A DNA stretch of 28,489 nt from a virus (lineage: Duplodnaviria; Heunggongvirae; Uroviricota; Caudoviricetes): the IMG/VR virus record IMGVR_UViG_3300017971_000019, positions 64,001 to 92,489 of that record, one strand, 5' to 3'. The notes beneath the pieces are model-generated. The model ran no database searches. It saw only the letters and a program-made list of their open reading frames with translations, and was not told the DNA's origin. Each line of letters starts with the position of its first letter. Within the stretch, counting starts at the first letter, position 1. Made by a program: the position numbers and the translations under genes. Shown one piece after another: positions 8,850 to 24,893 of this stretch.

Positions 8850-9027
8850 CCACCTCTCCCTTCCCTTCGCAGTACTCACACTGGTACTGCTCCTGCTCCG
8901 GGCACCGCCTCATGCACATCTCATCGGTGCCGTCACACGCGTGAACGTCACGAGCGAACCAGCCTCGCCCGTCGCACATCGGGCATTCTATCAAGGTCAG
9001 ATCTTCTTCGTTCACGGGTCCCCTCAC
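8818..9027 (-). CDS. DnaJ-type zinc-finger protein
   Basis: CPMCDGRG and CEYCEGKG (CxxCxGxG twice); GTGA overlap with the radical SAM stop. Confidence 0.75.
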   Translation of the reverse strand: MRGPVNEEDLTLIECPMCDGRGWFARDVHACDGTDEMCMRRCPEQEQYQCEYCEGKGEVDVNRGNVVGP

Positions 9028-9890
9028 ATTAGGATGGCACCGGGGTACTGCCAGTCGTACCGGAGGTGCCCGTCCGGGAAAAAGATCGCCTGGCGGATCC
9101 TGTCGCCCTTGGGGAGCGTGAGGCAGTCAGTGAGGCAGACGTTCTGCCCGTACACGTCGTAGACCTCAGCCCCGTGCTGGAGCTTCAGGACCATCGTGCC
9201 GTTGGTTCTGATGTGCTTCCGAACCAGCGCCACCCTGGCCTCGCTCAGCGAGTGTGCCCTCGTCCAGTCCGCCTCCTTCTGGCTGCGGGAGTGGTTTGCC
9301 ACCGCCACTGGCCGCAGGGAGAGTTGCTCCACCTCGTTCTGGCGTGCGAACTCGATGAGGGCTTCCACCTCGAAGGAACTGTCAATCCCGCCGGCCAGCA
9401 TGACCACCGAGAGCCGAACGCTGAGACCGGCGTCGTGGATCTTCTTGATGAGGTCCGCCAGGTTCGGGTACTCGTAGCCGGGACGGTGCCCGAGGTAGAC
9501 CTTCTGGTTGATGTCCCTCTTGTAGCTGGCGATGGAGAGCGCCACGGTCGTGAGCCCGCGCTCCCTCATCATTGGCAACCCGACGTAGTCGTCTTCAGCC
9601 ATCTTTAGGCCGTTCGTCTGAAGCTCCACGAACGGGAAGAAGTGCCCGACGTTGTCGAGGTAGTCGAGTAGCTGTCTGGGGTACAGGGTGGGCTCACCCT
9701 TGCCGGTGAGTATCACCGTGCTCACGTTCATGTTGTGAGCGAACTGGATGGCCTTCGCCAGGCGTGGCCCGTTGATCTCGGGCTCTTCCGGCGTGACGCC
9801 AAGGGGTGGCGTCATCTTCGACACACAGAAGGGGCAGGACGCGTTACACGCCGCACCCCCCACCACCAGGCTCAGGGTCTCTATCTTCAT
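9024..9890 (-). CDS. Radical SAM protein
   Basis: CNASCPFC (CxxxCxxC), ILTGKGEPTL and ELQTNG motifs. Confidence 0.92.
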   Translation of the reverse strand: MKIETLSLVVGGAACNASCPFCVSKMTPPLGVTPEEPEINGPRLAKAIQFAHNMNVSTVILTGKGEPTLYPRQLLDYLDNVGHFFPFVELQTNGLKMAEDDYVGLPMMRERGLTTVALSIASYKRDINQKVYLGHRPGYEYPNLADLIKKIHDAGLSVRLSVVMLAGGIDSSFEVEALIEFARQNEVEQLSLRPVAVANHSRSQKEADWTRAHSLSEARVALVRKHIRTNGTMVLKLQHGAEVYDVYGQNVCLTDCLTLPKGDRIRQAIFFPDGHLRYDWQYPGAILM

Positions 9891-18008: not shown

Positions 18009-19130
18009 CTAACGGCTGAGCTTGAGTACGGCCTTCTCCACGGCGCTGTAGCAGGCGTTGTACGTCGAGGAGAGACGGGCCACCCTGTCGGGGACACCGT
18101 CACAGTCGGCGTGAGCCAGCTTGAGCGTCTCGTAGATCTCTGGGATGGCAGTCTCGATCAGCTTCTCGTTCGAGACCTCCCAGACCGGAGCGCCACCGTT
18201 CCAGACCAGGTTGGCCCGGAAGGCGGCGAGGGACGGGAGGATCCATGCTTCGGAGATCTTCCCGCGAACCCTCTCACCGGAGAAGAACTGCTCGTACTTC
18301 CGGCGGAGGTTCATGTAGAAACCGGGCTTGCGGCCTGGGCTAAGGAACTCGGCCTCGATGCGGTCGCGCAGGAGGAGGATGTCCTTGGCCAAGGTGATGA
18401 GGACCGGGAGAGAGTCACCCGGCTGTGGGCTAGCCGCCTGGTCCGCGAAGAACCGCACGGCGTTGTTCTTCCGACCGTAGAGCGGGGTGGGGTGCTGGTG
18501 GCCGTGGTACTGCGTGCAGTCGAACACGGCGAGGTACTGGAGAATCACCCGCACGTCGATGGGCTTCTTCTCGTTCATCTTGTACGCCACCAGGCCGGCG
18601 TAGGGAGTGTCAGCGATCTCTGCCTTCAGAGCGTCGAAGCTCCCCTTGAGGTTCTCCAGGCTCTTGAGGTCCACCTGCTGACTCGTGTTGAGTCCGCCAG
18701 CGATCTCCACGATCTGGTCCTCATTCACGCCCGTCACCGCATGGATGAGGACGTAGGCCTTGCGGCTCAGGACTTCCTTCTCGAAGGAGAGGATGGCGTC
18801 GAGGGTGTGAGCCCCGTCGATCACGCCGTGGATCGAGGGGTTGGTGAGTTCGAGGATGACCTCCTTGCGACGGGAGTCGTACGACATCCCGAGTGCGGCG
18901 ATGGTGATCCCACGGTTGCGTTCGTGGAACTGCTCGGGGACCTCGTCCAAAGAGCCCACGATGTCCCGATAGACGGCTGTGTTGCGACTGATCTCGCGAG
19001 GGTTCACGTCACGCCAGTCCATCAATTCGCCTGGTACGGACGTGGCCTCTACGAAGAAGAACCCGTCCTTCTTCGAACCGGACGGGCTGGGGATGGCCCG
19101 GAATTGGGCCGAGGGGAAACGGAATTGCAT
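18009..19130 (-). CDS. AIPR family protein (ParB/Srx-related)
   Basis: DVNPRE..DIVGSL...PEQFHERNRGITI, GVIDGAHTL, IAGGLNTSQQVD.KSL.NL match the AIPR pattern. Confidence 0.82.
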   Translation of the reverse strand: MQFRFPSAQFRAIPSPSGSKKDGFFFVEATSVPGELMDWRDVNPREISRNTAVYRDIVGSLDEVPEQFHERNRGITIAALGMSYDSRRKEVILELTNPSIHGVIDGAHTLDAILSFEKEVLSRKAYVLIHAVTGVNEDQIVEIAGGLNTSQQVDLKSLENLKGSFDALKAEIADTPYAGLVAYKMNEKKPIDVRVILQYLAVFDCTQYHGHQHPTPLYGRKNNAVRFFADQAASPQPGDSLPVLITLAKDILLLRDRIEAEFLSPGRKPGFYMNLRRKYEQFFSGERVRGKISEAWILPSLAAFRANLVWNGGAPVWEVSNEKLIETAIPEIYETLKLAHADCDGVPDRVARLSSTYNACYSAVEKAVLKLSR

Positions 19131-19711: not shown

Positions 19712-20608
19712 CTACGCCTCCTCTCGAAGGTTGATCTTGCGCTTCGGCTTCTGCATGACGAGCGAGTCCAGAGTCTGGGCCACCCGCTTGAAGCCCTCGT
19801 GAACGTCCTGTCGGAGCGAGTCGCTCTTGCGGAGGTCATCCGGCTGGACACCCTCCGTGAGCTTCCGCATCCGCTCCACCTGTGACTGGAGTTCCTCGCT
19901 GGAGCCCACGTCGCGGAGCTTGAAGTTCGCCAGGAACTCGGTGATGTTCGACACCATGGAGTTGCGGAAGATCTTCGGCTTCCCGTCCTCGTCCGGCGTC
20001 AGGCGGTCCACCATGTGGTCCGCCAGGCCCTTGGCTTCCAGCGTGAGCATGTTCGTGATCTCGTGAACGGCCTCCTGGAGGGCCTCCTCCTGCTTCTCGC
20101 GCTCCCGCTCGAAGAACTGGACGCTGATCTTCTTGAGGCTGTCCGGCGTGCTCATTGTGAGCCACTTCCAGTCGATGCGGTAGAGAGCGTTGATCTGCTC
20201 TGCGGTCGGGTAGAGGCCGGGGTTGAATGCGGACCCGAGGCGGGCGCGGCTCTCCTCCTTCCGCTCGTCTGCCACGGCGGCGAAGGCCTCGACCAGGGGC
20301 CGGAAGTCCTCACGCGCCTTGAAGAGGAGAGCGTCGATCTCTTCGACGGCCTCCACCTTGACCATGTACATCCCGCCCTTCAGGAAGGACGGCACGGTCT
20401 TGGATCGCACCGCCAGCTTCAAGCTGGTGAGGAAGCGCCGGCACGCCTTGAGTTCGGGCGCGTCGTACAGGTCGATGCCGACGTGCAGCATGTCCCGGTC
20501 GATCTCGGTCTTGATCGCCTCGGTGGACGAGGACAGCTTCCGGCGGTTGCTCACCTGGCCCAGCGTGAGGGCCAGCACGACGGTGTTCTCCGACAGGTTC
20601 TGTGTCAT
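19712..20608 (-). CDS. DUF3150-like protein
   Basis: FLKGGMYMV...IDALL...F..LV..F...RLG.AFN...YP....I...Y.I.W and DRL....K.KIFRNSMV pattern; TAATG coupling; ends KPKRKINLREEA. Confidence 0.7.
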   Translation of the reverse strand: MTQNLSENTVVLALTLGQVSNRRKLSSSTEAIKTEIDRDMLHVGIDLYDAPELKACRRFLTSLKLAVRSKTVPSFLKGGMYMVKVEAVEEIDALLFKAREDFRPLVEAFAAVADERKEESRARLGSAFNPGLYPTAEQINALYRIDWKWLTMSTPDSLKKISVQFFEREREKQEEALQEAVHEITNMLTLEAKGLADHMVDRLTPDEDGKPKIFRNSMVSNITEFLANFKLRDVGSSEELQSQVERMRKLTEGVQPDDLRKSDSLRQDVHEGFKRVAQTLDSLVMQKPKRKINLREEA

Positions 20609-20757
20609 TACTCCATCTCCTTCAACGCGGCCTGAAGCCGCTCCAGACGGGACTGCTCGGACTCCTGGCCCTCGGGGGCCACGTAGCCCTTGGCGATGCG
20701 ACGCTCGCACTTCTCGATGCGCTTCTTGATGATGTCTGCCGGGGTCTTCTTCTTCAT
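20608..20757 (-). CDS. 49-aa helical hypothetical protein
   Basis: MKKKTPADIIKKRIEKCERRIAKG...LKEME*; coupled at both ends. Confidence 0.7.
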   Translation of the reverse strand: MKKKTPADIIKKRIEKCERRIAKGYVAPEGQESEQSRLERLQAALKEME

Positions 20758-21018
20758 CTATCTCTCCGAAGGGGTTGGAACGTCGTTGGACTTGAGCCAC
20801 GCCACCTCTGCGGCGAGGGCTTCCTTGCGAGTGGTGAACGGACCAAGAAGGGGACCTTTGACCGGAGACAGGTCTGCGGCCCACTCCCCATCCGGTGCCG
20901 GCTCGACGTGCGAGGCGCGGCGGACTGTCACTGTCCCGAGGGGCTTGACGAGAGCGACGAGGTCATCGTCGTAGATGAGTCTGAGGTCTCCGCTCTCGTT
21001 GAAGATGATGGTGCTCAC
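20758..21018 (-). CDS. Conserved small protein with RASHVEP motif
   Basis: VRRASHVEP..DGEW.ADLSPVKGPLLGPF.TR.EAL.AEVAWL; GTGA-coupled to the DUF2997-like gene. Confidence 0.8.
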   Translation of the reverse strand: MSTIIFNESGDLRLIYDDDLVALVKPLGTVTVRRASHVEPAPDGEWAADLSPVKGPLLGPFTTRKEALAAEVAWLKSNDVPTPSER

Positions 21019-21197
21019 TGGGTCACCAATGCCTTCCTGGCGGTGCCCTTCATCTCGGGCTTGTCCTCCCGCTTGAACGTCTTCCCGATGGCTTCCTCGA
21101 TGGCGCGGGTGGCGTCGAGGCACTCTCTCCCGGAGAACCCGGAGGCCTCGACCTTGGTCTGTCCCTGGCCGTCTACGATGATCGTGATCTTCTTCAC
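21015..21197 (-). CDS. DUF2997-like protein
   Basis: KITIIVDGQGQTKVEASGFSGRECLDATRAIEEAIG...EDKPE. Confidence 0.82.
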   Translation of the reverse strand: MKKITIIVDGQGQTKVEASGFSGRECLDATRAIEEAIGKTFKREDKPEMKGTARKALVTQ

Positions 21198-21541
21198 TTC
21201 TTCCTCCACTTGAGGGCTGGGTACATCCCCTCCTCCTTCTTGATCTGCCCCTTGAGCCACTTGTACCTGGCCCCACGGCTCCCGGTCCACTCGGGCCAGA
21301 TGTAGTCGTCCGCGAGGGTGTACCCTGGCCCCTTCCTGCGCCGGCCCTCGTCCCGAAGGAGCTTCCTGATTCTGTCTGTCATGTTCCGCGAGGCGTAGGG
21401 GATCTCGATGTGCCCGTAGTAGCTGCCGCCCCTGTCTCCGTCTATGTCGTCTAGGGCTGAGCAGAGCCCTCCCACGTAGCCCCGACTGACTGCCTCGGCT
21501 AGGAACTCCAGCACCTCCAGCTTGGTTGCGTACTTGCTCAT
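21194..21541 (-). CDS. Hypothetical protein
   Basis: 115 aa; coupled at both ends. Confidence 0.75.
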   Translation of the reverse strand: MSKYATKLEVLEFLAEAVSRGYVGGLCSALDDIDGDRGGSYYGHIEIPYASRNMTDRIRKLLRDEGRRRKGPGYTLADDYIWPEWTGSRGARYKWLKGQIKKEEGMYPALKWRKK

Positions 21542-21702
21542 GACTCTCTCTCCCTCCGAAGCTCCTCCTTCAGGAACTCGATGGTTGACTCGATCAGTAA
21601 GTGGTCCTTCCTCTCCTGCTCGGTCTGTTCTGGGTTCGTGGCCAAGCTCTTCAGTTCGGCGCGAACATGGTTGCTCGTGATCTTCCTGGGCTCGCTGCTC
21701 AT
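21538..21702 (-). CDS. 54-aa hypothetical protein
   Basis: MSSEPRKITSNHVRAELK...RRERES*; ATGA coupling; below the ORF-track cutoff. Confidence 0.65.
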   Translation of the reverse strand: MSSEPRKITSNHVRAELKSLATNPEQTEQERKDHLLIESTIEFLKEELRRERES

Positions 21703-21899
21703 CCCCTTAGCCTCCTGAAGAGCCAGCCGAGACAGACGACCGGCCAGAAGAGAGACAGGATGATCAGGATGACGTGCCCCGCCGTGTTACTGACCTCGGG
21801 GGCCTTCGACGGAGGGGACGTGCTCTCCAGCGTCCAGGCCATTGCGATCACGCCGGCCAGGTACGCCACGACTTCGATGCCTACCAGTGTCTCGATCAT
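21699..21899 (-). CDS. Small membrane protein (two hydrophobic segments)
   Basis: LVGIEVVAYLAGVIAMAW and VILIILSLFWPVVCLGWLF. Confidence 0.75.
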   Translation of the reverse strand: MIETLVGIEVVAYLAGVIAMAWTLESTSPPSKAPEVSNTAGHVILIILSLFWPVVCLGWLFRRLRG

Positions 21900-22279
21900 C
21901 GGACCATCACCTCCAGTTCCACCTGGTTGTCCTTGCGAGGAACCTCGCGGACGTTGTAGCCACGAATGCGAGCCATCCGCTTCGCAGCCTCGACAGCGTA
22001 CGCCTGGGAGAACTTCCCTCCGTTATGCCCGATGAAGGGGGTGAGTCCACCCGAGGCCCAGGCGTCGAAGTTCAGCGAGTACGTGCCGTCCTTCTGCTTG
22101 ATCAGGCCCACCGAGTATCTCGCGCCAGGGAACTCGATCATTGCGTCGCACGAGGACTTCCCTTCGTACCAGGTGTACTTCTTCACGTTCTCGTGCAGGA
22201 CGCCACCCAGCCGCTTCGCCGCGTTCTTCGCGTCACGAAGACTCTTGATCACTACCTTCGCCGTCGCGATGTGGCTCAC
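21896..22279 (-). CDS. DUF1257 (Ycf35-like) protein
   Basis: MSHI...T..I......A..RLG, YSVGL.KQKDGTYSL.FD.W, KF.Q.YAVE.AK..AR..GY.V.E. Confidence 0.82.
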   Translation of the reverse strand: MSHIATAKVVIKSLRDAKNAAKRLGGVLHENVKKYTWYEGKSSCDAMIEFPGARYSVGLIKQKDGTYSLNFDAWASGGLTPFIGHNGGKFSQAYAVEAAKRMARIRGYNVREVPRKDNQVELEVMVR

Positions 22280-22521
22280 GCGGCACCTCCCTTGTCCCAG
22301 AAATACGGATTGTCATCGAGCATGAGGCGACGCCTCGAACGTCTGATACACCTACGGACAGCCGCCTCATCCACGTCTGTACACGGTCTGTAGACCTGTG
22401 GACTCTCCTCTGTCTCACGTAGTCCAACTTCGACCCCCTCCCAGAATGCGTCGTACCAGCCCCCCAGGACCCCTGAGATCAGCTTCAGGAGCCCCAGGGC
22501 TACGACCAGCCTCCAGAACAT
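22276..22521 (-). CDS. Hypothetical protein with N-terminal hydrophobic segment
   Basis: 81 aa; abuts the AAA stop; GTGA-coupled to DUF1257. Confidence 0.65.
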   Translation of the reverse strand: MFWRLVVALGLLKLISGVLGGWYDAFWEGVEVGLRETEESPQVYRPCTDVDEAAVRRCIRRSRRRLMLDDNPYFWDKGGAA

Positions 22522-24105
22522 CTAGTTCGCTCCCTTCAGAGCAAGCTTGCGACCGCTGGACTTCTTGGGCTTGAAGTCGCAGGCCTTGCTCATCTCGTAG
22601 GTGCCGGGGTAGGAGGCGGAGAGGAACGTGCCGTCTGCCTGCTTCCGAAGGGACCGAACGGAGTCCGGTGCGCTCTTCGTGACAGGGACGATGTAGCTCT
22701 CGCCCACTTCCTTCACCGGCTTGTTGAGCTTGTATGCGATCTCGCACGCGTTGCGGATCTCGGCTCCCGTCCACCCGGTGTCATCCGGGAGGGGAGAGTC
22801 GAGGGGATGCCCGTACTTCTTCAGGTACACGGGCCACAGGCTGGAACGCTCCTCGTCAGTGAGGAGGTCGAAGTACCAGATCTGGAGCTTGAAGCGACGA
22901 AGAAGCTCAGGAGGAAGCACGTCGAGCTTGTTGCAAGTGGCCAGGACGAGGACGTTCTTGCCACCGATGCTCTTGATGGTGCGGAAGGCCTCGCGGAATG
23001 CCTGCTCGGACTCCCCGACGTGCTTGCCCTTCATGGACCCGGTGTCCATCACGATGGTAGGCACGTTGTGGTGCGCTCCGATGGACTCGGTGAGCACCGT
23101 CTTGCCGGACCCTCGGATGCCCACCAGGATGGCTCCGTTCCACTCGTTGCCTTCCATGTTGGTGAGGAACTGCTCGTGGAGATCCTGGGTGACTCCGGTG
23201 TTGTCCCCCGCACCGCCACCGGAGCCGAGTCCTGCGAGAGCCTTGTCGATCTCATCGATGCGAACGACAAGCTCCGGGGGTTCTGGCCCAGCCCAGAGAT
23301 CGTTGAGCATCCCGGTGACCTGGTCGAGGCCACGGAGATCCTTGAGGTCCGGGCCGTCGAGGGTCATGGTGAGACCCTTGACCTTGCTCACCGCCTTCTG
23401 CTTGAGGTCCCAGGCGTGCGCGAGGTCGATCTCGCCGGCATCCGGGTTGAGCGCAAGGGACATGGCGAGCACCTGTTCCGCCTCGAAAGCGGAGAGCCCA
23501 CGCACGCTGCGCGTGACCTTCTTCAGGTACTCGTCATCGGGCTTCGACAGGTCAGCCGAGTCATGTAGCTCACGAACGATGGTGGCGTAGCCCTCGTGCT
23601 CCGGGAGGGGATCGTCCAGCAGGATCACATCGTGGACGATCTCATCCGGGAAGGTGAAGTCAGGAGAGAGCATGATGAGCATATTCCCCTGCGCCTTGAA
23701 CGTGTCCCTGGTATTGAGCACCAACTGGACGAGTTCGTTCTGGACCTGAGAGTCATGCAGGAAGCGGTTGAAGCTGTGAGCGATGAGCACAACCTCCTTC
23801 TCTGCCTGGCCCTCGACCTGGCCCAGCTTCGATGCCGTGCGGATGGCGGCGACGGGATCGGACGTGGCTGTCTTGATCTCGTCGGCGTCCATGTCCAGCG
23901 AGTCCGCCAGTTCCTGGAGCACGACCTCGGCGGTCTTGTTGAGGGCCATGTAGCCGTTGCCCCGGTCCCAGGAAACGACCGGGAGGCCACCGTTGAGGCT
24001 CTCCGCGATGGTCTGCGCGAGGGCCGGCTGGTCCGGCGTAGTGACCGCGATCAGCGGCGTGGAGACGCGCTTCGCAGCCTTCAAGGAATCAATCAGGGAC
24101 TTCAT
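22522..24105 (-). CDS. Ycf46-like AAA+ ATPase with permuted Walker B/Walker A order
   Basis: Degenerate N-terminal AAA module, then LVVRIDEIDK, then GIRGSGKT, VGESE, VLATCN, LPPELLRRF and GWTGAEI. Confidence 0.88.
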   Translation of the reverse strand: MKSLIDSLKAAKRVSTPLIAVTTPDQPALAQTIAESLNGGLPVVSWDRGNGYMALNKTAEVVLQELADSLDMDADEIKTATSDPVAAIRTASKLGQVEGQAEKEVVLIAHSFNRFLHDSQVQNELVQLVLNTRDTFKAQGNMLIMLSPDFTFPDEIVHDVILLDDPLPEHEGYATIVRELHDSADLSKPDDEYLKKVTRSVRGLSAFEAEQVLAMSLALNPDAGEIDLAHAWDLKQKAVSKVKGLTMTLDGPDLKDLRGLDQVTGMLNDLWAGPEPPELVVRIDEIDKALAGLGSGGGAGDNTGVTQDLHEQFLTNMEGNEWNGAILVGIRGSGKTVLTESIGAHHNVPTIVMDTGSMKGKHVGESEQAFREAFRTIKSIGGKNVLVLATCNKLDVLPPELLRRFKLQIWYFDLLTDEERSSLWPVYLKKYGHPLDSPLPDDTGWTGAEIRNACEIAYKLNKPVKEVGESYIVPVTKSAPDSVRSLRKQADGTFLSASYPGTYEMSKACDFKPKKSSGRKLALKGAN

Positions 24106-24114
24106 CTGTCCTCC

Positions 24115-24504
24115 TTACTCCTGGCCGTAGACGATGCGGTTCACGCACTCGTTCGCCTCGACCTCTGTCCAGCAACCAGGCCTGCCGTACTTCTCCTTGC
24201 AGCCGCCAAGGTGGCAGACCTCGTGGCCGGCGAGTTCGTTCAGGTAGCTGAACGACCCATCGTGGATCGTCTGCCTGTGTGCGTTCACAACGTTCCCACC
24301 AGGCGTAGCCCATGCGGCCATCCAGCCGCCGTTCGGATTCTCGTGGAACTCCACGTAGCAGGGGCCATGCTCCAGCACGCCGCAGTAGTGCTCGACCTTG
24401 GCGATGAAGAACGCTTCCTGCTCGTTCACGGGATCGGGGGATGAGAACTCGGCGTGGCCGCACCCAATCCCCCAGAGTGCGAGCGCCGCGATCAGGATCC
24501 GCAT
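24115..24504 (-). CDS. Exported minimal M48-like zinc metallopeptidase (possible lipoprotein)
   Basis: MRILIAALALWGIG|C; AWATPGG (cf. M48 NAFALPGG); LAGHEVCHL (HExxH); downstream EVEANE. TGATG-coupled to the upstream gene. Confidence 0.7.
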   Translation of the reverse strand: MRILIAALALWGIGCGHAEFSSPDPVNEQEAFFIAKVEHYCGVLEHGPCYVEFHENPNGGWMAAWATPGGNVVNAHRQTIHDGSFSYLNELAGHEVCHLGGCKEKYGRPGCWTEVEANECVNRIVYGQE

Positions 24505-24893
24505 CAGTGAAACTCCGTTGGGGACACAGACTCGCCACCCTCGCAGGGGAAGTGGCGGATCAGCATGGCCGAGGTGATGAGGCGGACGGCCCCAGGCTTG
24601 TTCCACATCTCTGGGAACTCGTTCGCTATGTTGATCCACATCCGGGCGAGTTGCCCGTTGGTCTCGCTGGTCAGACCCTGGTAGCACTTCATGGTCACGA
24701 ACATCCCGTCATCGACTCCACGGATGTAGCCGAGGGCGTAGCCGTAGTGGATAGCCTCCCATCCACTCGGCCCATCCTGCTCCAGGGCGCGGATCATGCC
24801 CTGGACGCTGTTCATCGGCATGGGCGGGGGCTCACCGGCGGTTGCGATTGCTCCCGCCAGGCAGAGAGTCACGGCGATCAATGCTTTCTTCAT
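24504..24893 (-). CDS. Rap1a-like (T6SS amidase immunity fold) exported protein
   Basis: Signal peptide MKKALIAVTLCLAGAIATA; GYIRGVDD...C...TNGQL.....EFPE.WN.P...LI..AM...FPC. Confidence 0.75.
   Translation of the reverse strand: MKKALIAVTLCLAGAIATAGEPPPMPMNSVQGMIRALEQDGPSGWEAIHYGYALGYIRGVDDGMFVTMKCYQGLTSETNGQLARMWINIANEFPEMWNKPGAVRLITSAMLIRHFPCEGGESVSPTEFH

Follow-up and report, generated by a model that had tools for sequence, protein, structure and literature searches.

Does the gene at positions 22522..24105 (minus strand) encode an AAA ATPase whose Walker B motif precedes its Walker A motif, and is the AAA fold retained in such a protein? The window analysed here, the whole stretch of 28,489 nucleotides, comes from a virus of the Caudoviricetes (IMG/VR record IMGVR_UViG_3300017971_000019, positions 64,001 to 92,489). 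The gene is a complete CDS, a continuous ORF of 527 amino acids plus stop, and its product consists of two AAA domains, D1 and the permuted D2. In D2, GLDQV (residues 259-263) is followed by the Walker B segment LVVRIDEIDK (residues 279-288; nucleotides 23271-23242), GDNTGVTQD..NMEG (residues 300-319), the Walker A stretch GAILVGIRGSGKT (residues 324-336; nucleotides 23136-23098, with GIRGSGKT starting at 23121), VGESE (residues 363-367), VLVLATCN (residues 385-392), and LPPELLRRF (residues 397-405). The preliminary description gave this motif order in one continuous frame, and the order holds; its start of Walker B at 23270 was one base off, and its 23122 for Walker A is approximately the start of GIRGSGKT. 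The gene very probably encodes a two-tier classical-clade AAA ATPase, resembling Ycf46 and Corndog gp96, in which the Walker B unit of D2 was moved ahead of β1 and the fold was retained.

All features of the protein lie on the minus strand. D1 (residues 1-240; 23386..24105) is a degenerate AAA-like domain without Walker A. Its secondary-structure elements are in the canonical order in the AlphaFold2 model, for which the mean pLDDT and the pTM over 527 residues are 93.6 and 0.88, respectively. The motifs TPDQ, WD, and NLRD are kept in D1 of the family, with T23, D25, W46, D47, and R133 near-invariant.

The chain of D2 runs through α0, β3 with Walker B (D284 and E285), the pore-loop-2 region, α3, β1 with Walker A (K335), α1, β2, GESE/α2, β4 with sensor 1 (N392), the arginine fingers (R403 and R404), and the lid. 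α0, which bears the GLD motif, and the new G-P-x-P-P connector (residues 255-277; 23275..23343) lead into β3, not β1. The translocated unit (residues 279-323; 23137..23271) comprises β3, the pore-loop-2 region with the pattern GD.(S/T)GV(S/T)QD, and α3, which ends in M-E-D. Its acidic pair D284-E285 (23251..23256) was assigned from conservation and coevolving pairs. β1, the P-loop, α1, β2, pore loop 1, and α2 (residues 324-384; 22954..23136) are now downstream of Walker B. The P-loop GIRGSGKT (residues 329-336; 23098..23121), the pore-loop-1/GESE region K-G-K-H-V-G-E-S-E (residues 359-367; 23005..23031), and the arginine fingers R403-R404 in the second region of homology (22894..22899) were assigned from residue conservation. 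β4 with VLVLATCN and N392 (22930..22953) is joined directly to α2 by a turn of 3-4 residues. The helical lid and C-terminal extension (residues 417-505; 22591..22857) include the GWTGAEIRN motif, and the lid residues W445, T446, G447, E449, I450, and R451 are kept in at least 90% of the members.

The defining elements of an AAA domain are found in D2: Walker A of the form GxxGxGK[ST] (GIRGSGKT, residues 329-336), Walker B of the form hhhhDE on the central strand beside sensor 1 (VVRIDE, residues 280-285), a second region of homology with the sensor-1 Asn and the Arg fingers (N392, R404, and R403), and, in the predicted model, an α/β core with a C-terminal helical lid, which superpose on AAA domains of known structure. 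The chain order, β3-α3-β1-α1-β2-α2-β4, departs from the canonical β1(Walker A)-α1-β2-α2-β3(Walker B)-α3-β4(sensor 1). The exchange is confined to two internal segments, 279-324 and 325-384. Because the flanking α0/GLD helix and the part from β4 to the lid stay put, the permutation is non-circular, as had been claimed; in a circular permutation the old termini are joined and new ones lie inside the domain, which is not the case in D2.

The canonical references were the Corndog gp96/phrog_8638 family and the solved structures of p97, VAT, and spastin, and the exchange was also seen in sequence alignments with VAT and gp96. In a phmmer search against the PDB, residues 323-382, 280-330, and 378-485 of the window protein matched residues 321-380, 382-429, and 416-526 of VAT (5vc7), respectively. 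BLASTP against Corndog gp96 aligned residues 324-381 with 315-372 and residues 382-502 with 413-551, and the moved unit (residues 278-318) was aligned with 373-410 at an E value of 6e-4. With hhalign, the main match to the gp96/phrog_8638 family in native order (Q6-504 to T28-553; score 404, E 4e-52) left a 40-column gap at the Walker B unit of the canonical family, and a second, out-of-order match (Q277-326 to T372-418) covered 47 columns with a probability of 98% and an E value of 1.8e-13. After in-silico de-permutation, a single colinear match of 468 columns was obtained (score 524, E 6e-68). The swapped split alignment, which the preliminary description proposed as a check against Ycf46, was thus obtained against these references by all three programs, and the swap is far beyond chance.

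Existing profiles are affected in the same manner. Pfam AAA (PF00004) matches the window protein at 52 bits (cut-off 21.2) in two separate stretches, with profile positions 2-55 on residues 326-379. The phrog_8638 profile gives 124 bits in 4 stretches for the window protein (P0001) and 955 bits in 1 stretch for Corndog gp96; this means that the window protein is not a full-length colinear member of phrog_8638. The NCBIfam search returned only fragmentary sub-threshold matches (CDC48, CdvC, PAN, and IteA), and no dedicated model matching the protein colinearly from end to end was found in Pfam, PHROG, or NCBIfam.

In the AlphaFold2 model, pLDDT is 96-98 over β3 and α3. The whole model (residues 1-504) was aligned with D1-D2 of p97 (7lmz_C, residues 209-764) by VIA-align over 407 residues with a Z score of 17.7. 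Structural alignment with p97 D2 (3cf0_A) gave a Z score of 15.3 and an rmsd of 2.7 Å for 205 residues, reaching residue 494 of the model, and that with spastin (6p07_B) gave 16.1 and 2.7 Å for 208 residues. The shortfall of approximately 45-50 residues in these two superpositions is the size of the moved unit. Coevolution was analysed by mean-field DCA on the family alignment (Neff 225). The strand-pair ranks were 21 for β3-β4, 38 for β3-β2, 40 for β1-β5, and 144 for β1-β4; the non-neighbour pair β4-β5 was at rank 304 with two top-2L pairs, and the remaining non-neighbour strand pairs were at ranks >900 with none in the top 2L. Among the coevolving pairs are D284-T390, V280-L386, V281-I377, and V280-V348, and R282-T339 is the top pair overall; the moved strand also coevolves with α1 and α2. 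Model and coevolution, which share one family alignment and are therefore not fully independent, agree in placing the moved strand between β4 and β2, consistent with a retained 5-1-4-3-2 sheet. The retained sheet order with rewired connections, likewise suggested earlier as a point to be examined, is thereby supported. Residue invariance, coevolution, and model confidence together suggest that the geometry of the active site is also kept.

The permuted order is kept in all members of a set of 254 full-length homologues (35-66% identity). The statement that the catalytic residues are intact is borne out: E285, K335, N392, and R404 are invariant, as is G332, and position 284 is Asp in 240 and Glu in 14. 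K288 is found in 252 and R403 in 247, and position 336 is Ser or Thr in every member. In the pore-loop-1/GESE region, K359 is kept in 218, V363 in 230, G364 in 253, S366 in 238, and E367 in 227. Position 362 is mostly aliphatic (Leu in 117, His in 49, Ile in 31, Tyr in 24, and Phe in 12). The pore-loop-1 aromatic residue is thus mostly replaced by Leu or His in the family, so that it is not certain that substrate is threaded in the classical way. The connectors are conserved as well, with G259 in 251, G273 in 238, and P277 in 226 members, and the spacing from GLD to Walker B is 26 residues in 241. The spacing from R371 to N392 is 22 residues in 224 members; therefore, no relic of the old β3 is left there. 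It should be mentioned that the P-loop of Walker A is interrupted by an intein in one homologue (P0161). Since conserved motifs of active sites are the usual location of inteins, its position can be read as a sign that the site is essential.

Two other readings of the upstream DE segment were considered. It might be left over from an additional AAA repeat, now partly deleted, and pack elsewhere; D2 would then be devoid of a true Walker B strand and would be a nucleotide-binding, non-hydrolysing domain or a pseudo-ATPase. D1 is indeed already degenerate, and Pfam sees only two AAA stretches, with precomputed annotations rating the domain as "faint". However, a relic is hard to reconcile with an acidic pair in which E285 is invariant and D284 is Asp or Glu in 254/254, or with the specific coevolution of the strand with β4 (V280-L386 and D284-T390) and β2 (V280-V348), and also with α1 and α2. 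Furthermore, β2 and β4 are at their canonical positions (2.7 Å), which leaves an empty central slot with strand 279-283 as the sole candidate; the 3-4 residues between α2 and β4 leave no room for another β3. This reading is considered highly improbable. Slightly less remote, and still very unlikely, is a 3D domain swap, in which the moved β3-α3 completes the sheet of the neighbouring protomer and the ring is held by strand exchange. Coevolution is blind to the difference between intra- and inter-chain contacts in homo-oligomers, and the moved unit is at a domain boundary, adjoining the D1-D2 linker. Nevertheless, AlphaFold2 gives a compact cis monomer with the high pLDDT of β3 and α3 noted above, and the connector from α3 to β1 is approximately 5 residues with a tightly conserved length. 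The spacing from the Walker B Lys to the β1 Gly, 31-42 residues, consists mostly of loop and α3, which favours a hairpin-like return in cis to the strand position next but one.

The order might also have arisen artificially in this one record, through misassembly, a frameshift, or a chimera, as this is a metagenome-derived IMG/VR genome. This is hardly conceivable: the frame is continuous, and the order recurs in hundreds of contigs that come independently from various studies, in gp103 of Tunturiibacter phage Tunturi_3, the only cultured-phage homologue found, and at two loci of the complete Nitrospira moscoviensis NSP M-1 genome. The artefact reading is refuted by these independent homologues, in agreement with the preliminary description, which had argued against misassembly and named a clade sharing the order as a further check. 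The family is large. At E<=1e-30, 958 clusters (50% identity) of phage and prophage proteins were found, and the best 150 of these are colinear with the window protein in a single stretch. Loci of the family number at least 326 in IMG/VR and 155 among species-representative bacterial genomes; the one bacterial locus examined has a prophage-like context, and the bacterial genomes belong to Acidobacteriota, Nitrospirota, Planctomycetota, and others. A motif scan of 160 fetched independent viral and bacterial loci gave 139 with the permuted order, 0 with the canonical order, and 21 in which the motifs were not resolved.

Among known proteins, gp96 of Mycobacterium phage Corndog (phrog_8638; an "AAA-ATPase" in cluster O) is the closest in design. 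It is in the same length class as the window protein, and both families combine a degenerate D1 with a classical AAA D2 and have the same lid. Residues 3-274 of Tunturi_3 gp103 match phrog_8638 profile positions 21-288, the D1 region. The wording of the gp96 motifs (DEIEKAL.G..G..D.GVS.D.LG..L.WMQD, KG..VGESE, and LPPE.LR..RF) is also nearly that of the window protein. However, their order in gp96 is canonical, Walker A, GESE, Walker B, and sensor 1, whereas Walker B comes first in the window protein. In gp96 a helix-loop of approximately 14 residues (SPEARAYNLKLPK) joins α0 to β1, where the window protein has the moved 45-residue unit. By sequence comparison, the gp96 family is the canonical-order sister family of the permuted ATPase. 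Among viral proteins, the fold is matched best by three phage proteins named "ycf46" in UniProt, with TM scores of 0.60-0.67 over the whole length and only approximately 16% identity. The motif order of Ycf46 is described as canonical. The only other link to Ycf46 is the neighbourhood of the window gene, with DUF1257 (Ycf35) and DUF2997.

The stacked D1-D2 arrangement is that of type II classical AAA unfoldases, p97/Cdc48/VAT, Rix7, and Drg1. The window D2 superposes on p97 D2 and on the single-domain spastin and Vps4 at an rmsd of 2.7-2.8 Å, and it shares with p97-type AAA domains Walker A and B, sensor 1, the double Arg finger, and a lid of the GAEI type that lacks the sensor-2 Arg. In contrast to p97-type proteins, the window protein has no P-loop in D1 and no N-terminal substrate/adaptor domain, the pore-loop-1 aromatic residue is mostly lost, and the strand order of D2 in sequence is 3-1-2-4-5 and not 1-2-3-4-5. 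P-loop NTPases with motifs in a non-standard order and the fold kept are known in cpGTPases (YlqF/YjeQ-type), in which a TRAFAC GTPase is circularly permuted in the true sense (G4-G5-G1-G2-G3). In the window D2, which belongs to the ASCE/AAA+ division, the flanks at the termini are unmoved and an internal β-α unit is shifted instead.

In an ancestor of this phage/prophage family, the unit β3(Walker B)-pore-loop-2-α3 would have been moved from the gap between α2 and β4 to that between α0 and β1. An internal duplication of β1 through α3, after which the outer halves were lost, might be the route, which we offer as a conjecture; no intermediate carrying both copies of the unit was seen, and the connector-length distributions contain no relic of a duplicated segment. 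The fold and the five-strand sheet would be retained with only three connections rewired: α0 to β3 via the conserved G-P-x-P-P linker, α3 to β1 via a short N-G-W-x-G turn, and α2 to β4 via a G-G-x-x turn. ATP would be bound by K335 and T336 and hydrolysed with D284 and E285 of the moved strand, N392 of sensor 1, and R403 and R404 acting in trans. The window protein would be an active ATPase and would assemble into a ring (hexamer). An oligomer prediction with three D2 copies (residues 240-510), 2 ATP, and 2 Mg, run without controls, gave a score of 0.02, which weighs neither for nor against a ring.

It is possible, but rather unlikely, that the rewiring is not neutral and yields an AAA motor with a mechanochemistry of its own, or a ring built by strand exchange, as an adaptation to the DUF1257/DUF2997 partner module. 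The P-loop strand would then be wired directly to pore loop 2 and to α3, whose M-E-D end signals between subunits, and α2/pore loop 1 would be tied directly to the sensor-1 strand. Such a protein would represent the first naturally occurring topological isomer of the AAA+/ASCE core with a canonical-order sister for comparison.

To our knowledge, the ASCE/AAA+ core is regarded as having one invariable strand order throughout the superfamily, so this family would stand out as a natural, abundant, non-circular permutation of the core that keeps every catalytic residue. In a literature search on permuted AAA proteins, Walker B before Walker A, Ycf46, Tunturiibacter phage, and DUF1257/DUF2997, with few subscription journals covered, the order was undescribed. 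The AAA fold seems to tolerate a different chain path, and the Corndog gp96-like sister permits comparison of folding, of allosteric coupling between pore loops and nucleotide site, and of the origin of permutations. Annotation is also concerned: standard domain models catch the family in fragments only (Pfam AAA split in two or "faint"), which affects about a thousand sequence clusters from phages and bacterial genomes, the latter prophage-like where examined. Experiments are within reach, as gp103 is encoded by an isolated phage, Tunturi_3, with a culturable host, Tunturiibacter psychrotolerans.

A neighbouring DUF1257-like (Ycf35-like) gene at 21896..22279 (minus strand) matches PF06868 with an E value of 0.017, below the curated cut-off; its equivalent in Tunturi_3, gp102, matches at 1.2e-7, above the cut-off. 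This neighbour is likely a functional partner of the permuted ATPase. The DUF2997 gene (21015..21197, minus strand; 60 residues) matches PF11211 with an E value of 1.4e-12 and 47.7 bits (cut-off 24.1), and DUF2997 is at the matching relative position in loci L004 and L005. A conserved protein of approximately 300 residues is encoded downstream of the ATPase gene at 19712-20608. In the gp96-like loci, the gene after the ATPase encodes a protein of approximately 265-293 residues, and, unlike in the window locus, no DUF1257 or DUF2997 is on record; BLAST detected no similarity between these proteins and that of 19712-20608. The permuted ATPase might remodel proteins in concert with the conserved DUF1257, DUF2997, and ~300-residue proteins from the early/replication region of the phage. 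The DUF1257 (Ycf35) and DUF2997 families are clustered together in cyanobacteria (PMC4284462). In the control genomes, the DUF1257 search gave a match in Synechococcus elongatus.

The window ATPase is encoded by a continuous ORF of 527 residues on the minus strand (22522–24105). In the catalytic AAA domain (D2), the motifs read from the sequence, all on the minus strand, follow the order GLDQV (aa 259–263), the Walker B motif LVVRIDEIDK (aa 279–288, nt 23271–23242), GDNTGVTQD...NMEG (aa 300–319), the Walker A segment GAILVGIRGSGKT (aa 324–336, nt 23136–23098), VGESE (aa 363–367), the sensor 1 strand VLVLATCN (aa 385–392), and LPPELLRRF (aa 397–405). This is the motif order of the preliminary description, in which one coordinate was off by one base and another by a few codons.

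Three independent alignments show that the swapped order represents real homology: the segments of the window ATPase align in exchanged order, as had been anticipated, to canonical AAA proteins. In a phmmer search against solved structures, residues 323–382, 280–330, and 378–485 matched residues 321–380, 382–429, and 416–526 of VAT (5vc7), respectively; no colinear match across the moved unit was found among the solved structures searched. Mycobacterium phage Corndog gp96 has an architecture equal to that of the window ATPase, with the motifs in canonical order. BLASTP aligned residues 324–381 with gp96 315–372 and residues 382–502 with gp96 413–551, and the gap coincides exactly with the Walker B unit of gp96; a separate match (E 6e-4) placed residues 278–318 on gp96 373–410. 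The strongest of the three is a profile–profile comparison of 254 permuted-family members with 116 gp96-like proteins. In the native order, a gap of 40 columns interrupts the main match (438 columns, score 404), and a second, out-of-order match connected 277–326 of the query with 372–418 of the target (probability 98%, E 1.8e-13). When the segments were rearranged in silico as 1–278, 325–384, 279–324, and 385–527, one colinear match remained, with 468 columns, a score of 524, and E 6e-68; the out-of-order match was gone. All breakpoints are in loops: after Pro277/Glu278, before Gly324, and before Val385.

An AlphaFold2 model was built from an 84-sequence alignment (mean pLDDT 93.6, pTM 0.88; 96–98 for the moved strand and helix). 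In this model, the elements of D2 are, in chain order, helix 261–272, strand 279–283, helix 305–319, strand 323–329, helix 335–345, strand 350–353, helix 363–381, strand 385–391, helix 399–404, and strand 409–412, followed by the lid. The N-terminal 240 residues (D1) show the canonical β–α order without a P-loop. The whole model superposes with p97 D1–D2 (Z 17.7, 407 residues); therefore, the window ATPase is a type-II-like AAA protein whose D1 is degenerate. When D2 is taken by itself, it superposes with p97 D2, spastin, and Vps4 with rmsd values of 2.7–2.8 Å (200–208 residues). The part of D2 left uncovered is roughly as large as the moved unit, which is what sequence-ordered aligners should give.

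The neighborhood of the moved strand was examined by mean-field direct-coupling analysis of the family alignment (Neff 225; 36,585 residue pairs). The top coupling of the whole domain is Arg282–Thr339, between the moved strand and α1. The moved strand couples in parallel register to β4 (Val280–Leu386 and Asp284–Thr390) and, through Val280–Val348, to β2. The strand pairs rank 21 (β3–β4), 38 (β3–β2), 40 (β1–β5), and 144 (β1–β4) of 36,585. The non-neighboring pairs β3–β1, β3–β5, β1–β2, β2–β4, and β2–β5 rank beyond 900, with none among the top 2L pairs; β4–β5, also non-neighbors, rank 304 with two top-2L pairs. The canonical 2-3-4-1-5 sheet is thereby reconstructed, with the translocated strand in the β3 slot beside sensor 1. 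A retained sheet order with a rewired chain, for which a structural comparison had been suggested, is supported by both the model and the couplings.

The swapped order is neither an artefact nor a one-off. Walker B lies about 45 residues ahead of Walker A in all 120 word-index homologues (37–66% identity). An exhaustive phmmer search of 1.84 billion representatives gave 958 clusters at E≤1e-30, which constitute the permuted clade that the preliminary description had sought; the alignment is a single colinear stretch in all of the best 150 of these 958. Glu285, Gly332, Lys335, Asn392, and Arg404 are invariant across 254 full-length members aligned with MAFFT. Position 284 is Asp or Glu and position 336 is Ser or Thr in every member, while Lys288 and Arg403 are present in 252 and 247, respectively. 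Spacings between motifs hardly vary: that from GLD to Walker B is 26 residues in 241 members, and that from Arg371 to Asn392 is 22 residues in 224. An assembly artefact, already argued against from the continuous reading frame, is contradicted by recurrence of the order in independent homologues, including gp103 of the isolated Tunturiibacter phage Tunturi_3. The record of this phage annotates gp103 just as "ATPase", and the Tunturi_3 genome paper does not mention it. Pattern scans located at least 326 permuted-family loci in IMG/VR and at least 155 in species-representative bacterial genomes, the latter chiefly from Acidobacteriota, Nitrospira, Planctomycetota, and Myxococcota. When 160 fetched loci were scanned with simple motif patterns, 139 were permuted, none was canonical, and 21 were left unassigned by these patterns. 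The complete genome of Nitrospira moscoviensis NSP M-1, a cultured nitrite oxidizer, carries two permuted copies (loci L049 and L053). Next to the copy examined (L049) are genes for a TSCPD-domain ribonucleotide reductase and a DnaG-type primase, a setting suggestive of a prophage or another integrated element. One 861-residue homologue (P0161) contains a LAGLIDADG intein of about 340 residues that interrupts the P-loop of Walker A itself (GPPG|...|SGKS); its hallmarks are an N-junction Cys, a homing-endonuclease block (LLAGLIDTDG), and a C-junction HN|S. Because inteins usually sit in conserved active-site motifs, this insertion is read as a sign that the P-loop site is essential.

Split homology, conservation in 254 members, and the coevolution-placed strand agree with the non-circular permutation with intact catalytic residues proposed in the preliminary description. 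This permutation of the AAA+ core is real, ancient, and widespread, and it leaves the catalytic set intact. In topology, the permuted family is a new form of an otherwise known enzyme type, with a predicted ATPase activity. The closest family, phrog_8638 with Corndog gp96, shares architecture and motif wording but has the canonical order; among viral proteins, those that match best in fold are phage proteins bearing the name "ycf46". No whole-length colinear match was obtained among the Pfam, PHROG, and NCBIfam models: the Pfam AAA match was split into two pieces and the phrog_8638 match into four, and the NCBIfam matches were fragments only. In precomputed Pfam annotation, the AAA domain of two permuted members (L004 and L005) is just "faint", whereas canonical gp96-like proteins have clear AAA and AAA_lid_3 matches; therefore, the permutation partly masks the family from routine annotation. 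None of the literature reached by full-text search describes an AAA+ protein in which Walker B precedes Walker A. The nearest conceptual precedent is the circularly permuted GTPases, in which, however, the permutation is circular and affects another division of P-loop proteins.

The alignments and the model show D2 as retaining all classical AAA active-site elements in a predicted canonical spatial arrangement. The chain path differs at three connections: α0 to β3, α3 to β1, and α2 to β4. By analogy with the established AAA+ mechanism, Lys335 and Thr336 would bind ATP-Mg, Asp284 and Glu285 would activate water, and Asn392 would sense the γ-phosphate, with Arg403 and Arg404 acting in trans within a predicted ring. 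Two pore loops would face a central channel: pore loop 1, with the pattern K-G-x-[L/H/I/Y]-V-G, and pore loop 2, whose segment GD.(S/T)GV(S/T)QD is retained. As a conjecture, the order might have arisen by duplication of β1 to α3, followed by loss of the first β1–α2 and the second β3–α3; no duplication intermediates or relics were seen in permuted-family members.

The window forms the end (28.5 kb) of a complete virus record, which is 92,489 bp long and carries direct terminal repeats. The ATPase gene is in the early/replication region, and the replication genes are typical of tailed phages (DnaB-type helicase, PD-(D/E)XK exonuclease, and RecT). A conserved module on the minus strand (19712–22521) lies downstream of the ATPase. 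It consists, in order, of a small hydrophobic ORF (22276–22521), a DUF1257-like gene (21896–22279), a second small hydrophobic ORF (21699–21899), DUF2997 (21015–21197, E 1.4e-12), and a gene for a protein of about 298 residues (19712–20608) with 33% identity to its L005 counterpart. In the three relatives compared (L004, L005, and L049), small ORFs and a protein of about 305 residues also follow the ATPase; DUF2997 is on record after it in L004 and L005, and a DUF1257-like protein is downstream in Tunturi_3 as in the window. It is plausible that the DUF2997, ~300-residue, and DUF1257-like proteins are partners or substrates of the permuted ATPase.

Other genes of the window should be mentioned. 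A phage-encoded protein (18009–19130, minus strand) has an AIPR abortive-infection phage-resistance domain (PF10592, E 2.8e-20), unusual cargo for a phage, which may be directed against competing phages. A 129-residue protein with an apparent signal peptide (24504–24893, minus strand) weakly resembles the type VI immunity protein Rap1a (PF18602, E 1.9e-4, under the curated cut-off). A radical SAM enzyme gene is present at 9024–9890 (minus strand), and PTPS and GTP cyclohydrolase I adjoin the ATPase module in the related phage contig L004 (11625–13554); together these hint that this phage group has DNA modification of the 7-deazaguanine type.
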